Counted from the stretch's first letter, positions 24,434-62,534 are shown. The stretch is 64,000 bases of DNA from Thermoanaerobaculia bacterium (GCA_035556715.1 DATMER010000063.1:4270-68269); one strand, 5' to 3'. Program-made: numbers and translations. Notes: a model not told the origin generated them from the sequence alone.

Positions 24434-25200
24434 TTAGGATAGCAGGGATTCCCGGAGACGCTCGGCCATGCTCAGCACGTTTGGCGTCTCGTGCATGGTT
24501 TCGTGATTGCCGGTCACCAGGAGCACGTCGCACCCGCCTTGGGCGAGATCGATCCAGGCGATCTCCGGCCGCGGCGGATCGCCGGGCCTGCGCTCCCCGG
24601 CGCGGAAGAAGAGCATTCGGCCGGCGAAGGGCCGCGGCTGGTAGGCGTACAGGGCCGCGACGTTGCTCTGGAGGACCCTCACGATCCGCCGGGCACCACC
24701 TTCGTCGAAGTCTTCCGAGAGCGCTCCGGCCTGCCTGGCCTTGTCGATCGCGTAGGAGATCTGCCCGTCCGGGGAGAGGGTTTGCAGCTCTTCGGGGGTG
24801 AGCTCGATCCGGCCGGTGAAGGCGCCGGTCACGATCTCCTCGGAGGTGAGCCGGCGCTGCGGCATCTGCTCGCCGCACGGGGTATCCATCAGGGTGAGCA
24901 GCTCGACCGTCTCGCCCGCCTCCCGCAGCCGGTGGGCCATCTCGAAGGCGACCATGCCGCCCATGGAGGCCCCGCCGATCCGGTACGGCCCGGCGGGCTG
25001 GGCGCTCCGCGCCAGCTCCAGGTAGTGCGTGGCCATCTCCTCGACGCTGGCGAGCGGCTCCTCGCCGTCCTCCAGGCCGAGGGAGCGCAGGCCGTACACG
25101 GTCTGGCTCTTGCCCAGGGCCTGGGCCAGGGCGCGGAAGGTGTAGACGTTGCCGCCCACTTGGTGGACGAGGAAGAGCGGGCGCCGGCCATCGCCCTTCT
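24434..25200 (-). other. C-terminal thioesterase (TE) domain preceded by the ACP (serine near 25390)
   Basis: TE motif GPYRIGGASMGGMVAFEMA (GxSxG) and the downstream sequence …LLVTGNHETMHE… near the catalytic His. ACP motif is DFFELGGSSLMAV. Confidence 0.8.
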
Positions 25201-60400: not shown

Positions 60401-62534
60401 GGATCTCCTGCTGGACGAGCTGATTCGCCAGGGCTTCGCGCTCAGGAGCTAGGCGGAGGTCCACGATCGGAATCTCCGCCCGCCAGGGAGGATGGACCAA
60501 CTGCGCTGGTCGGCCGTCCACCGCCGGGAAGGTCGTGCGCAGCACTTCGTGCCGCCGGATCACCTCGGAGAGCGACGCTTCCAGCACCGCCGGCCGCAGG
60601 GGGCCGCGAAAGCGCACCGAAAACTGGAAGTTGTAGGCCCAGTTGCCCGGCGAGAGCTGGGTAAGAAACCAGACCCGCTCCTGCGCGAAGGAGAGCGGGA
60701 TGTGCCGGTCCCGCGGCGCCGGATGGATCGGCGGCAGCTCCTCAGCAGCGGCCTCGCGGAGGACCGCGATCCGCCGCGCCAGCAGCTCCACCGTGGGGTG
60801 CTCGAAGACCTCGGGCAGCGGCAGGTCCACCCCGAGATCCTGCCGCACGTGGGTCACGATCTGCGCGGCGAGCAGCGAGTGGCCGCCCAGCTCGAAAAGG
60901 TTGTCATGGACGCCGATGCCGTCGATCCCCAGCAGCTCGCCCCAGATCCGCGCCAGCGCCTCCTCGGTCTTATCGCGGGGCGGCGCGTACGGCGTGTCCA
61001 GCTCCGGCCGCGAGCGGCCCGGCTCGGGCAGGGCGCGGCGGTCCACCTTGCCCGTGGGAGTCATGGGCATGGCGGCCAGGAAGACGAAGGCCTCGGGCAC
61101 CATGTACTCGGGCAGCCGCGCGGACAGGAAGGCGCGCAGGGCGCTCACCGTCAGCCCCGGATCGCGCCGCACCACGTAACCCACCAGCCTCTTGGTCGCG
61201 CCCTCCTGCCGGGCGACGACCACGGCGGTCTGCACGCCGTCGTGCTCGCCCAGGACGGCCTCGATCTCCCCCAGCTCGATGCGGTTGCCGCGGATCTTGA
61301 CCTGGAAGTCGACGCGGCCGAGGAAGAGCAGGTCGCCGTCCGCCAGCCTGCGCGCCAGGTCGCCGCTCTTGTACATCCGGGCGCCGGACCGCGTGGAAAA
61401 CGGATCGGGGATGAAGCGCTCCGCGGTCAGGTCGGGCCGGTTCAGATAGCCGCGCGCCACGCCGACACCGCCCAGGCAGATCTCGCCTTCCCCCTCGCCC
61501 GCGACCTCCACCCAGTCCGCGTCCTGGAGGTGGACGCTCATCTCCTCGATGGGGCCGCCCAGCGTGGGCAGCCCCTGGCCGGAGCAGAACGAGGCCGTAG
61601 CGTAGACCGTGGCCTCGGTCGGGGCATAGGCGTTGATCATCCGCCGGCCGGGAGCCCACAGCGCGGCCGTGGCCGCCGAGCAGGCCTCGCCGCCCACCAG
61701 GATCGAGCGCAGGCAGGTCAGCTCCTTCTCCATGCCCGCCGGCACCATGTCGAGGAGCGACGGCGGCAGCACCAGGTGCGTGATCGCCCCGTCGCGCAGC
61801 GCGGCTCCGAGAGCCTCGCCCGCCATCAGCGTCTGCCGCGGCGTGAGCACCACGCAGGCGCCAGCGGTCAGGGCCGAGAAGATCTCCAGCACCGAGGCGT
61901 CGAACCCAAGCGACGCGAGCTGCAGCGACCGGTCGCCCGGCCGCATGTCCAGCAGACCGATCGACTGGCGGATCATGTTGACCACGCCGCGATGGGGAAC
62001 CACCACCCCCTTGGGCCGACCCGTGGAGCCCGAGGTGTAGATCACGTAGGCCGTAGTGTCCGGGTGGGTCGGATGCGGCTCCCCGGGAGCCGCGGCGGGA
62101 GCGGGCTCGGGCAGGTCCTCGAGGTAGAGGGCGTTTTCCTGCGGCAGGAGGTCCGAGAGCGCCCGTTGCGTGAGGAGGACCGACGGCCGGCCGGGCAGGT
62201 TGCCGCCGCAGGCATCCTCCCAGATCCAGGCCAGCCGGTCGCCGGGATAGCTCGGATCGAGCGGGACGTAGGCGCCGCCCGCTTCGAGGATGCCGAGCAT
62301 CCCGATCATCATGTCCAGCGAGCGCTCGGCGCACAGGCCCACCAGGGTGTCCGGGCCGACGCCGCGGCTCTGGAGAAGCGCTGCCACGCGGCCGGCCCGC
62401 TCCAGGAGCTCGCGGTAGGTGAGGCTCTCCCCTCCGAAGGCCACGGCCTCGGCGTCCGGGGTCCTGGCGGCCTGCGCCCTGATGAGCTGGTGGATGCACC
62501 CTTCCGGATGGGACTGCGTAGCGCTCGGAGTCAC
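54489..62534 (-). CDS. Non-ribosomal peptide synthetase, loading plus two elongation modules (A-T-C-A-T-C-A-T), 2681 aa
   Basis: It begins with an A domain and has no N-terminal C domain. A1 has an atypical A5 core NAYAPTE and code DALVLGAVYK, 8/10 to a Tyr code DALVTGAVVK. A2 code is DAWFLGHVVK (Leu-like). A3 code is DLFNNALTYK (Ala-like). T serines lie near 60890, 57740 and 54700. The GTG start at 62534 is preceded by AAGGAAGGGGAG. Confidence 0.9.
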   Translation of the reverse strand: MTPSATQSHPEGCIHQLIRAQAARTPDAEAVAFGGESLTYRELLERAGRVAALLQSRGVGPDTLVGLCAERSLDMMIGMLGILEAGGAYVPLDPSYPGDRLAWIWEDACGGNLPGRPSVLLTQRALSDLLPQENALYLEDLPEPAPAAAPGEPHPTHPDTTAYVIYTSGSTGRPKGVVVPHRGVVNMIRQSIGLLDMRPGDRSLQLASLGFDASVLEIFSALTAGACVVLTPRQTLMAGEALGAALRDGAITHLVLPPSLLDMVPAGMEKELTCLRSILVGGEACSAATAALWAPGRRMINAYAPTEATVYATASFCSGQGLPTLGGPIEEMSVHLQDADWVEVAGEGEGEICLGGVGVARGYLNRPDLTAERFIPDPFSTRSGARMYKSGDLARRLADGDLLFLGRVDFQVKIRGNRIELGEIEAVLGEHDGVQTAVVVARQEGATKRLVGYVVRRDPGLTVSALRAFLSARLPEYMVPEAFVFLAAMPMTPTGKVDRRALPEPGRSRPELDTPYAPPRDKTEEALARIWGELLGIDGIGVHDNLFELGGHSLLAAQIVTHVRQDLGVDLPLPEVFEHPTVELLARRIAVLREAAAEELPPIHPAPRDRHIPLSFAQERVWFLTQLSPGNWAYNFQFSVRFRGPLRPAVLEASLSEVIRRHEVLRTTFPAVDGRPAQLVHPPWRAEIPIVDLRLAPEREALANQLVQQEIRKPFDLERLPLLRWLLIRLGDEDHLLLQVEHHFVHDGWSLAVFLREVKELYIAYHEGRPSPLPEPPVQYADFAVWQREWLQGEALAGHLAWWVEHLAGSPPVLELPADRPRLKAHSFRGAGLRADLPRDLYADVRSASRREGVTLFMTSLAAFCALLYRYTGQEDVLLGSGIANRRLRELEDMVGMVVNTIVLRAGVAGGMTFRELAAGARRATLAAHAHQDVPFERIVERLQPDRELSRNPLFQVLFSFHDSPVPDLDFCGMTGDLLERHNGSAKSDLNVVAKPRAEQRVAFGGRDADDMTFIWEYSGDLFDGSTIDRMWAHYQSLLRAFVKDPGRRISELPLLSEAERGQLAEWSGPVREEDGAPVHRQVAAWAERTPDAIALADRGVELTYAGLMEEARDLAYRLRALGVEPETVVAVCTERSPEAVVAALGILEAGGAWLPLDPSYPSERLRYLLEDSGARAVVARPEFLGMLPETGLPIVDLDLGRFLPPGRGPLEAGGGQEGGSSLAYVIYTSGSTGRPKGVEIPHQGLSNLVSWHCRTYGVTPADRATMLAGPAFDASVWEVWPYLASGASVHVPDADTRAEPGRLLSWMAAQGITLAFLPTPLAEALIETEMPSGLALRALLTGGDRLRRAPESPLPFALVNHYGPTESTVVTTAGEVLAGRGVPSIGRPIDGLSVWLLDRDLRKVPPGVPGELCVGGNGLARGYRGRPDLTAERFLPDPVGRLYRTGDLARWRKGELEFLGRIDHQVKVRGYRIELGEIEAVLAEHPEVREAVVTVRERGGERVLVGYVVGEGALHAFLSDRLPSYMVPATFVFLPALPLTPNGKLDLRALPEPEWGGEREEDAGPSSPLEETLAGIWSSVLGVGSVGVHDNFFKLGGHSLMATRVLSRVRDAAGVDVPLSALFEEPTVAGLARVVGELMRGAESSDGPIPRRVADGPAPVSFAQERLWFLDQLAPGLTAYSIVRVFRLRGPLDTEALARAAAGVIRRHAALRTTFAALEDRPVQVIAAITAIAAIEVPVIDVASPEEADRRLKEEAQRPFDLRSGPLLRMTVARLAPDDHRLLLAMHHIVSDGWSMGILFRELSALYRGDGHLPELPIQYADYAVWQRERLQGDRLAALVTYWREALAGAPAVSELPLDRPRPQVQSYRGDQVERELAPDVAAGLRDLARRSGSTLFMGLLASLGALLSRYAGRPDVVVGSPVAGRTRSEVEPLIGFFVNTLALRLRWEGDPGFAGLLARARRTVLMAHAHQELPFEKLVAELSPERSLGHTPLFQVMLTLQERDAGSLEILDAETLPLARGESRFDLELGVIEGDGGLRLLWRYDRDLFDEPTVARMAGHHEQLLRGLLQDPEARLSGLALLSPAEEEQLRSWNGPPLLPLTDTLHSLFAAQAARTPDAPAVISAAGELTYGELADRAGRIARWLRASGVGPEIPVGVLLERGPDLIAALLGVLQAGGFYVPLDPAYPEARTAFLLEDSGARIVITEESLRDVPDSPDADRSDDGGAGPDNLAYLIYTSGSTGRPKGVAIEHRSAVALLRWASGVFPAEDLAGVFVSTSVCFDLSVFEIFLPLSRGGALVLGENALALAGLPQAERVTLINTVPSAMEELLRLGAVPRSVRAVNLAGEPLTAALVDRIYSQTGAERVFDLYGPSEDTTYSTFALRQAGGPATIGRPIAGTRCVLLDPWGSRVPVRVPGEIHLGGAGLARGYLNRPDLTAERFVPDPLREGERLYRTGDLARWRPDGNLELLGRIDHQVKVRGFRIELGEIEAAILAHPGVREVAVAVLEERLVAYVVPPGIETEELRELLSRRLPAYMVPTAWVVLTALPRTPNGKLDRKALPRPEMSGDGFVAPETPEEERLAAIWAEVLGIERVGIHDDFFRLGGHSLLVVRLMSQVRREMEVDLPLRSLFQTPTVAGLARAVVQAGLSGSGGKTPRIAAVSRAGHRRTRPSEGGQV

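Follow-up and report, generated by a model that had tools for sequence, protein, structure and literature searches.

The window analysed here is a stretch of 64,000 nucleotides from a metagenome-assembled genome (MAG) of an uncultured soil bacterium of the Thermoanaerobaculia (Acidobacteriota), and from position 24,434 to 62,534 it is occupied by a hybrid assembly line of nonribosomal peptide synthetase (NRPS) and polyketide synthase (PKS) modules. The line is encoded by three minus-strand open reading frames (ORFs), P1, P2 and P3. While it is otherwise of a well-known kind, its distinctive part is a sulfotransferase (ST) domain lodged mid-line after a predicted serine-loading step. We tentatively propose that this domain places a sulfate ester on a carrier-bound serine and that the ester stays in the product. 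The subunits are listed below with the usual letters for adenylation (A), carrier (T), condensation (C), ketosynthase (KS), acyltransferase (AT), acyl carrier protein (ACP) and thioesterase (TE) domains.

54489..62534, minus strand: P1, NRPS subunit of 2681 aa, A1-T1-C2-A2-T2-C3-A3-T3, GTG start, GenBank HWM91848.1
48295..54492, minus strand: P2, NRPS subunit of 2065 aa, C4-A4-T4-C5-A5-T5, TTG start, HWM91847.1
24434..48298, minus strand: P3, NRPS-PKS subunit of 7954 aa, (C-A-T)x5-ST-C-A-T-KS-AT-ACP-TE, ATG start

Each ORF contains one stop codon, at its end, and none internally; their number, strand, lengths and coordinates are those given by an earlier note on this DNA. That note had also described GTGA overlaps with GTG starts. 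Overlaps of 4 nt do lie at both junctions, but the one between P1 and P2 reads TTGA (the P2 TTG start on the P1 stop), the one between P2 and P3 reads ATGA (the P3 ATG start on the P2 stop), and only P1 begins with GTG. Purine-rich, Shine-Dalgarno-like runs (GGAGG/GGAAGG) stand ahead of the starts of all three subunits and, together with the 4-nt overlaps, fit translational coupling of P1-P3. Identical 2065-aa and 2681-aa proteins are present in an independent JGI assembly, which makes it unlikely, at least for P1 and P2, that a frameshift was introduced by assembly. The window proteins (HWM91844-HWM91848, from a 103-kb contig) are singletons at 90% identity. The size of P3 had been called unusual, a view that the metagenomic relatives described below overturn, as they have ORFs of more than 6900 aa that are still running off contig ends.

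Domains were counted with Pfam and positioned by a phmmer self-scan, and both return the order listed above. The Pfam matches across P1, P2 and the front half of P3 are solely AMP-binding, AMP-binding_C, Condensation and PP-binding, with scores far above the cut-offs; ketoacyl-synt, Acyl_transf_1, Sulfotransfer_3 and Thioesterase join them in the second half of P3. No family for epimerisation (E), heterocyclisation (Cy), methyltransfer (MT), ketoreduction (KR), dehydration (DH) or enoyl reduction (ER) was matched by Pfam in P1-P3, and the stretches between domains leave no room for one. There is also no starter C, F or CAL domain at the start of P1, an ORF that has no possible upstream extension. 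The hallmarks of a modular type I NRPS are complete, with HHxxxDG in 10/10 C domains, D235 and K517 in 11/11 A domains and GGxS in all carriers, and the KS, AT and ACP of the last module carry the motifs of a cis-AT type I PKS, the AT being of the malonyl type. Automated annotation thus agrees with the earlier note on the module order, on the absence of a starter C domain and of E, Cy, MT, KR, DH and ER domains, and on a hybrid line of eleven amino acids and one malonyl unit with its beta-keto group kept, ending in a TE. The locus almost certainly holds an intact, orphan, colinear NRPS-PKS line for eleven amino acids plus one malonate, closed by a TE.

Specificity codes were taken from an alignment of the eleven A domains to GrsA, whose own code DAWTIAAICK is recovered at the canonical positions. 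All eleven codes that had previously been extracted by eye were reproduced. They are DALVLGAVYK (A1), DAWFLGHVVK (A2) and DLFNNALTYK (A3) in P1; DAWFLGHVVK (A4) and DLFNTALTYK (A5) in P2; and DLYNNALTYK (A6), DALWLGGTFK (A7), DLFNNALTYK (A8 and A9), DVWHISLVDK (A10) and DLYDFSLIWK (A11) in P3, where for A2 and A4 the fourth code position falls on an alignment gap and F was placed by local register. We take the corresponding residues to be X1 (hydrophobic or aromatic-like), Leu, Ala, Leu, Ala, Ala-like, Val, Ala, Ala, Ser and X11. Since Asp235 is kept in every A domain, all substrates should be alpha-amino acids. Two of these domains bear directly on what follows.

32690..34093, minus strand: A10, Ser-type adenylation domain, code DVWHISLVDK
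28499..29929, minus strand: A11, Cys-clade adenylation domain, code DLYDFSLIWK, LGGATE motif

The earlier assignments hold for position 10, where the Ser code is followed by the ST within the same module, and for position 11 as a divergent member of the Cys clade: A11 scores 396 and 320 bits against the Cys-activating A domains of BmdB and PchE, A1 only 232 and 185. This Cys-clade domain is paired with an ordinary C domain, not with a Cy domain. Position 6 had been read as Cys-like, and here the assignment has to be revised. A6 is 73% identical to A8 and 68% to A9, both Ala-type, shares the LYGPSEDTTY motif with them, and is 46% identical to A11, so that an Ala-type residue is more likely than Cys by this comparison. 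Modules 8 and 9 (36148-39580 versus 39205-42688), which have the same code, are 75.6% identical at the nucleotide level over 3.5 kb, with A8/A9 82% and C8/C9 71% identical as proteins; judged from this similarity, they are a tandem duplication.

All ten C domains open with a motif of the xS(F/Y)xQ(E/R)R(L/V)WF type and most have (M/F)HHI(V/I/A)SDGWS, the variants being EHHFVHDGWS in C2, VHHLVWDGRS in C4 and QHHIASDGWS in C8. The best PDB matches of C4 are Txo2, Txo1 and TycC6. Hidden epimerisation, for which a check by C-domain type had been proposed, was judged by an in-family surrogate, namely the C domains that follow E domains in relatives, rather than by LCL/DCL reference sets. In relatives, the C domain behind a true E domain (IHHLxxD plus EGHGR) opens PLSPMQEGMLFH and has FHHLLLDGWS; 0/10 C domains of the window are of this kind. 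P1-P3 likewise have no EGHGR-type E domains, no dual-E/C-like C domains (an extra N-terminal His motif or the PLSPMQxGxLFH type) and no extra Condensation matches. Provisionally, the peptide is thus predicted to be all-L with no hidden epimerisation, and the three translationally coupled subunits would load eleven L-alpha-amino acids in colinear order.

The sulfotransferase module and its relatives

Together with A10, three domains form the part of P3 on which our proposal turns.

32405..32596, minus strand: T10, carrier domain with GGNSI, an atypical motif, against GGHSL in each of the remaining ten NRPS T domains
31379..32266, minus strand: ST of the type that uses 3'-phosphoadenosine-5'-phosphosulfate (PAPS), Pfam Sulfotransfer_3, CurM/OLS clade; PRSGST loop, PPEL Glu, DKTP and RHPY retained
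29987..31321, minus strand: C11, condensation domain after the ST, canonical MHHIASDGWS

The ST (P3 residues ~5345-5640) is 45-50% identical over ~290 residues to the STs of CurM and the olefin synthase OLS, and matches 4gbm and 4gox in the PDB with E = 2.5e-65 and E = 6.7e-65. Positions invariant in an alignment of 15 ST sequences occur in the window ST by construction, so the independent check is provided by the CurM/OLS motifs PRSGST, PPEL, DK(S/T)P and RHPY, all of which are conserved. Its nearest genomic relatives come from Holophagales, Thermoanaerobaculia and Anaerolineae MAGs, and a Holophagales MAG has a post-ST C domain with 79% identity to C11.

A scan of metagenomes returned at least 525 relatives of the ST; 79 of these loci were fetched and five genomic loci were added (loci are numbered with the prefix L). 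Nearly all relatives in these 79 metagenomic and five genomic loci sit in NRPS modules built as C-A-T-ST-C or C-A-T-ST-TE, some lines having two or three ST modules, and a protein search placed many of the closest ST relatives in A-T-ST, T-ST-C or ST-TE contexts. All A-code, T-motif and nearest-neighbour counts in this text take in related clusters from different samples and are not phylogenetically independent. The A domains directly before T-ST (n=76) carry the Thr code DFWN[IV]GMV in 30/76 cases, the Ser code DVWHxSL[IV] in 16/76 and a Tyr-like code DASTxAAV in 8/76; Thr or Ser codes therefore make up 46/76, compared with about 10% of the remaining A domains of these loci (n=144). There are also ST modules with Orn-like and beta-Ala-like codes. 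For 45 of the 76 STs the nearest neighbour has the same class of upstream A domain, where about 30% would be expected. The carrier domains diverge as well: GGHSL is found in 0/87 T domains before an ST, which have GG[DNST]S[IL] instead, and in 113/132 T domains before a C domain. T domains before an ST thus form a subtype of their own, co-evolved with the ST and resembling the GGDSI T domains ahead of E domains. Module 10 of the window (DVWHISLVDK, GGNSI, ST, C) matches this family exactly.

It is improbable that the ST acts elsewhere, for example on the hydroxyl of the aromatic-like residue 1 or on the released product, or that it is a catalytically silent relic. Since 8/76 ST modules are Tyr-like, the clade can probably sulfonate phenols, and the code of A1 is aromatic-like. 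However, the ST is fused right behind T10 with its co-evolved subtype, the specificity of the upstream A domain correlates with both the presence and the sequence of the ST, and the conserved CurM/OLS motifs speak against a relic.

The Cys-clade A11 directly behind the ST module could suggest that an activated Ser10 is captured intramolecularly, either by the thiol of residue 11 to give a thioether (a lanthionine-like seven-membered ring) or by the following amide nitrogen, which would displace the sulfate to give a beta-lactam; nocardicin biosynthesis, which passes through Ser activation or dehydration at a C domain, lends this some colour. Among the relatives, however, the residue that follows ST-C is highly diverse and never Cys-type, so that capture would be unique to the window cluster, and C11 is an ordinary C domain. 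We consider capture very improbable. The diversity of the following residue implies no obligatory partner chemistry, and a characteristic Cys after ST-C was rejected as a family trait on the same ground.

Several observations on the relatives stand apart from the window. C-A(Thr/Ser)-T-ST-TE is a common terminal NRPS module (20/76 scored ST modules), the ST-TE loci including L012, L014, L018-L021, L027, L031, L032, L039, L044, L049, L055, L056, L063, L069, L072, L073 and others. An Anaerolineae MAG (L001:1-20486, JARYMM010000023.1) has three STs in a row, beginning with a PKS module KS-AT-...-ST and continuing with two C-A-T-ST subunits (DASTVAAVGK and DAEHLGAITK) and a C-A-T-TE, which suggests a poly-sulfated or multiply modified product. 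In Anabaena sp. PCC 7108 (L089:10001-12217), a lone CurM-like ST lies directly before an alpha/beta hydrolase, with neither PKS nor NRPS, and an APS kinase and a second sulfotransferase are found ~2-4 kb upstream on the opposite strand. The pair may be a split ST plus hydrolase system; as a link to a known sulfated peptide it was rejected, the ST being a stand-alone one outside any NRPS.

A literature search for an A(Ser/Thr)-T-ST-C module retrieved only OciA, DysB, the trans-acting ST of sulfazecin and CurM-type cases. The domain content of the line, which the earlier note had called unusual, is so in its Ser-T-ST-C part when set against the published literature, but ST modules are common in soil metagenomes.

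Possible fates of the sulfate

The proposed sequence of events begins with the Ser-specific A10, which would load Ser onto the atypical T10. The fused CurM-type ST would then transfer a sulfo group from PAPS to the beta-hydroxyl of the Ser held on T10, after which the ordinary C11 would hand the chain on. With the sulfate ester kept, the product would be a hydrophobic peptide bearing an anionic O-sulfo-Ser near its C-terminus. That Ser10 is the substrate is inferred from the sequences, as are the point at which it is sulfonated, what becomes of the sulfate and how the chain is released. O-sulfonation of T10-bound Ser is the best-supported of these steps, since a Ser thioester is formally a beta-hydroxyacyl thioester, the substrate class of CurM, and it is quite probable that the ST acts there. 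Retention of the sulfate is close to an even call, elimination a lesser possibility, and other fates make up the remainder; taken as a whole, the proposal with retention falls a little short of an even chance.

Retention is favoured by precedent. OciA (cyanopeptolin/oscillapeptin) and DysB (dysinosin) have NRPS-integrated STs that act on carrier-bound glyceric acid, and their products keep the sulfate (PMC2533009, PMC6520454). These published in-line STs keep their esters on a beta-oxygen analogous to that of Ser10, which argues against the reading in which the sulfate is a leaving group. In that reading the ST activates Ser10, and elimination on the thioester or at C11 yields dehydroalanine (Dha), amounting to a PAPS-dependent dehydration. 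Such an outcome is doubtful but has several points in its favour: the window ST belongs to the 'activating' CurM/OLS clade, Ser or Thr, from which Dha and dehydrobutyrine (Dhb) arise, is loaded by 60% of ST modules, and ST-C and ST-TE contexts are intermingled in the ST tree. Post-ST C domains, moreover, have another post-ST domain as nearest neighbour in 38/54 cases, versus 28/160, and some columns of post-ST TEs are enriched in Arg, e.g. 67% versus 9%.

These points meet with others of the opposite sense. A residue signature for post-ST C domains was sought by column frequencies and none was found, the largest frequency difference being 0.32 and HHxxxDG being kept. The one post-ST TE tested matched ordinary NRPS TEs, with no CurM entry among its PDB matches, and a CurM-TE-like post-ST TE was rejected on that sequence comparison. 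ST modules with Tyr-like codes favour retention further, as an aryl sulfate cannot be eliminated, and Orn-like and beta-Ala-like modules also count against a general eliminating role. Finally, the sulfated beta-hydroxyacyl-ACP of CurM is not known to eliminate spontaneously.

Retention of the sulfate nonetheless has a number of considerations weighing against it. CurM and OLS, the characterised members of the ST clade, install the sulfate as a leaving group. To our knowledge, O-sulfo-Ser and O-sulfo-Thr are rare in characterised nonribosomal peptides, whereas Dha and Dhb are common. The STs of OciA and DysB are set beside the window ST by their published description and not by ST sequence. A literature search on the code strings gave nothing useful, and the residue assignments (DLFNNALTYK, DAWFLGHVVK and others) are predictions based on code tables. 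The family counts, as noted, draw partly on related clusters. Extended to the whole family, the alternative has the fused ST use PAPS to install a leaving group, so turning Ser (here) or Thr (most relatives) on the carrier into Dha or Dhb, which we regard as unlikely; in A-T-ST-TE versions, a CurM-like decarboxylative elimination might give C-terminal enamides.

If the ST works as proposed, module 10 would be a complete example of a module type that joins a CurM-like ST to a specialised T domain and an A domain for hydroxy-amino acids. This type is abundant in soil metagenomes (at least 525 relatives), and no biochemical study of it was found in the literature search. Should the sulfate stay, the family could make O-sulfated nonribosomal peptides, anionic amphiphiles from uncultured Acidobacteria. 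Should it leave, the modules would provide a widespread and previously unrecognised PAPS-driven route to Dha and Dhb in nonribosomal peptides of uncultured soil Acidobacteriota and Chloroflexota. In addition, the pre-ST T motif, which is never GGHSL, offers a simple handle for genome mining and a rule for module engineering.

Chain termination and genomic setting

Two overlapping features describe the end of the line.

24461..28156, minus strand: terminal PKS module KS-AT-ACP-TE, with TACS, HGTGT and NIGH in the KS, GHSIG and HAFH in the AT, GGSS in the ACP and GASMG in the TE
24443..31319, minus strand: cassette C11-A11-T11-KS-AT-ACP-TE, colinear with and ~70% identical in nucleotides to the end of a neighbouring ~4300-aa NRPS

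The terminal PKS module has no KR, DH or ER domain. It would add a malonyl unit without reducing the beta-keto group, and the type I TE would release the chain. A KR-less KS-AT(malonyl)-ACP-TE leaves a gamma-amino-beta-ketoacyl thioester, for which possible modes of release are hydrolysis with subsequent decarboxylation, which would give a methyl ketone, ring closure by the side chain of X11 to a six-membered thiolactone or lactone, formation of an N-acyl tetramic acid, and macrocyclisation. The TE itself, 2300 aa downstream of the ST, matches generic NRPS/PKS TEs, with no CurM entry among the matches.

The neighbouring ~4300-aa NRPS lies ~9.4 kb upstream of P1, has a Methyltransf_21 domain and is conserved in related Thermoanaerobaculia contigs. 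Counterparts of the cassette are found at L086:537-6952, L087:467-7367 and L006:1-559, with the A codes DLYDFSLVWK and DLYDVLLVWK. On sequence similarity, the common cassette suggests that a functional group at the C-terminus is conserved and that the cassette was duplicated or recombined. That a Cys-clade residue, malonate and TE are common to two neighbouring clusters hints at a lineage-specific C-terminal pharmacophore.

The related contigs L086-L088 share the genomic backbone of the window but not its cluster. The backbone runs in the order ~4300-aa NRPS, CBM9/DUF5916 gene, 665-aa protein, M20 peptidase, PilB-like ATPase, GT9 and PfkB. Since the CBM9/DUF5916 gene directly adjoins the 665-aa orthologue in L086-L088, a hydrolase gene, a 125-aa ORF and P1-P3 can be recognised as a strain-specific insertion. 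The inserted block spans ~40.6 kb, from 24414 to ~65071 (past the window end), and has a G+C content of ~72% compared with ~66% in the flanks. No MbtH, phosphopantetheinyl transferase (PPTase) or transporter is present among the genes of the inserted block. The genes adjoining P1-P3 are as follows.

62970..64000, minus strand: 3' part of a 669-aa S33/TAP-like alpha/beta hydrolase, inside the inserted block and continuing past the window
62568..62945, minus strand: 125-aa ORF adjoining P1 on its upstream side, part of the inserted block and matching no family
22417..24414, minus strand: 665-aa secreted protein with two CxxCH (di-haem peroxidase-like), starting 20 nt after the P3 stop; conserved backbone gene
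20882..22399, minus strand: M20 family peptidase with a signal-peptide-like N-terminus; conserved backbone gene

The 665-aa protein has no Pfam match at E <= 0.001 and faint MauG/MbnH di-haem matches (E 0.03-0.05). Its family has at least 4951 members in Acidobacteriota, with several paralogues per genome and the JGI label 'cytochrome c peroxidase', and is largely outside current domain libraries. Both this protein and the M20 peptidase were considered as tailoring enzymes of the cluster and rejected, as their orthologues hold the same backbone site in contigs that do not have the cluster. Antisense ORFs of up to 1968 aa run across the NRPS genes, e.g. at 26357-32263 and 40010-45427 on the plus strand; they are the stop-poor opposite frames expected at 72% G+C and no genes. 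Outside the cluster, the minus strand at 6893-12698 encodes a 904-aa TPR-CHAT protein, a weak sigma-70 region-2 match, a weak S8 subtilase match and a DUF5700 putative Zn peptidase, and upstream of the cluster there is another CHAT/AAA_16/TPR protein (L006:889-4446).

Comparison with known systems

The ST of the window is homologous to those of the CurM and OLS ACP-ST-TE tridomains (curacin A; cyanobacterial olefin synthase; 4GBM and 4GOX). The PAPS-binding and Glu motifs are kept, and the predicted substrate is likewise a beta-hydroxyl on a carrier-bound thioester. The two differ in placement: in CurM and OLS the ST stands between a PKS ACP and a decarboxylating TE and takes part in offloading, whereas the window ST is part of a mid-line A(Ser)-T-ST-C arrangement, and a full NRPS module and a PKS module separate it from the TE.

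In its ending, the line can be compared with those for epoxomicin and eponemycin, in which an NRPS is followed by KS-AT-cMT-ACP-TE with no KR. Common to both are a peptide, one malonate added on a KR-less PKS module, and TE release as a beta-keto acid equivalent. The window line, however, has no C-methyltransferase (cMT) domain, and no methyltransferase or acyl-CoA dehydrogenase match is present in P3 or in the inserted block. An epoxyketone is not expected since both the C-methyltransferase and the acyl-CoA-dehydrogenase-like partner are missing.

The C5 domain of nocardicin NocB and the CmodAA domains are examples of Ser or Thr dehydration at a C domain and are not known to use a sulfotransferase or PAPS. 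If the sulfate of the window line were to leave, the product type (Dha or Dhb) would be the same, although C11 has no special signature of its own.

The remaining comparison is with OciA and DysB. There, the ST is part of a loading module that receives glyceric acid by way of FkbH, while the window ST stands at module 10 of 12 after a Ser A domain, and the window line has no FkbH or HAD-type Pfam match. What the window line has in common with OciA and DysB is an ST fused into the NRPS behind a carrier domain, here in the form of the T10-ST fusion.

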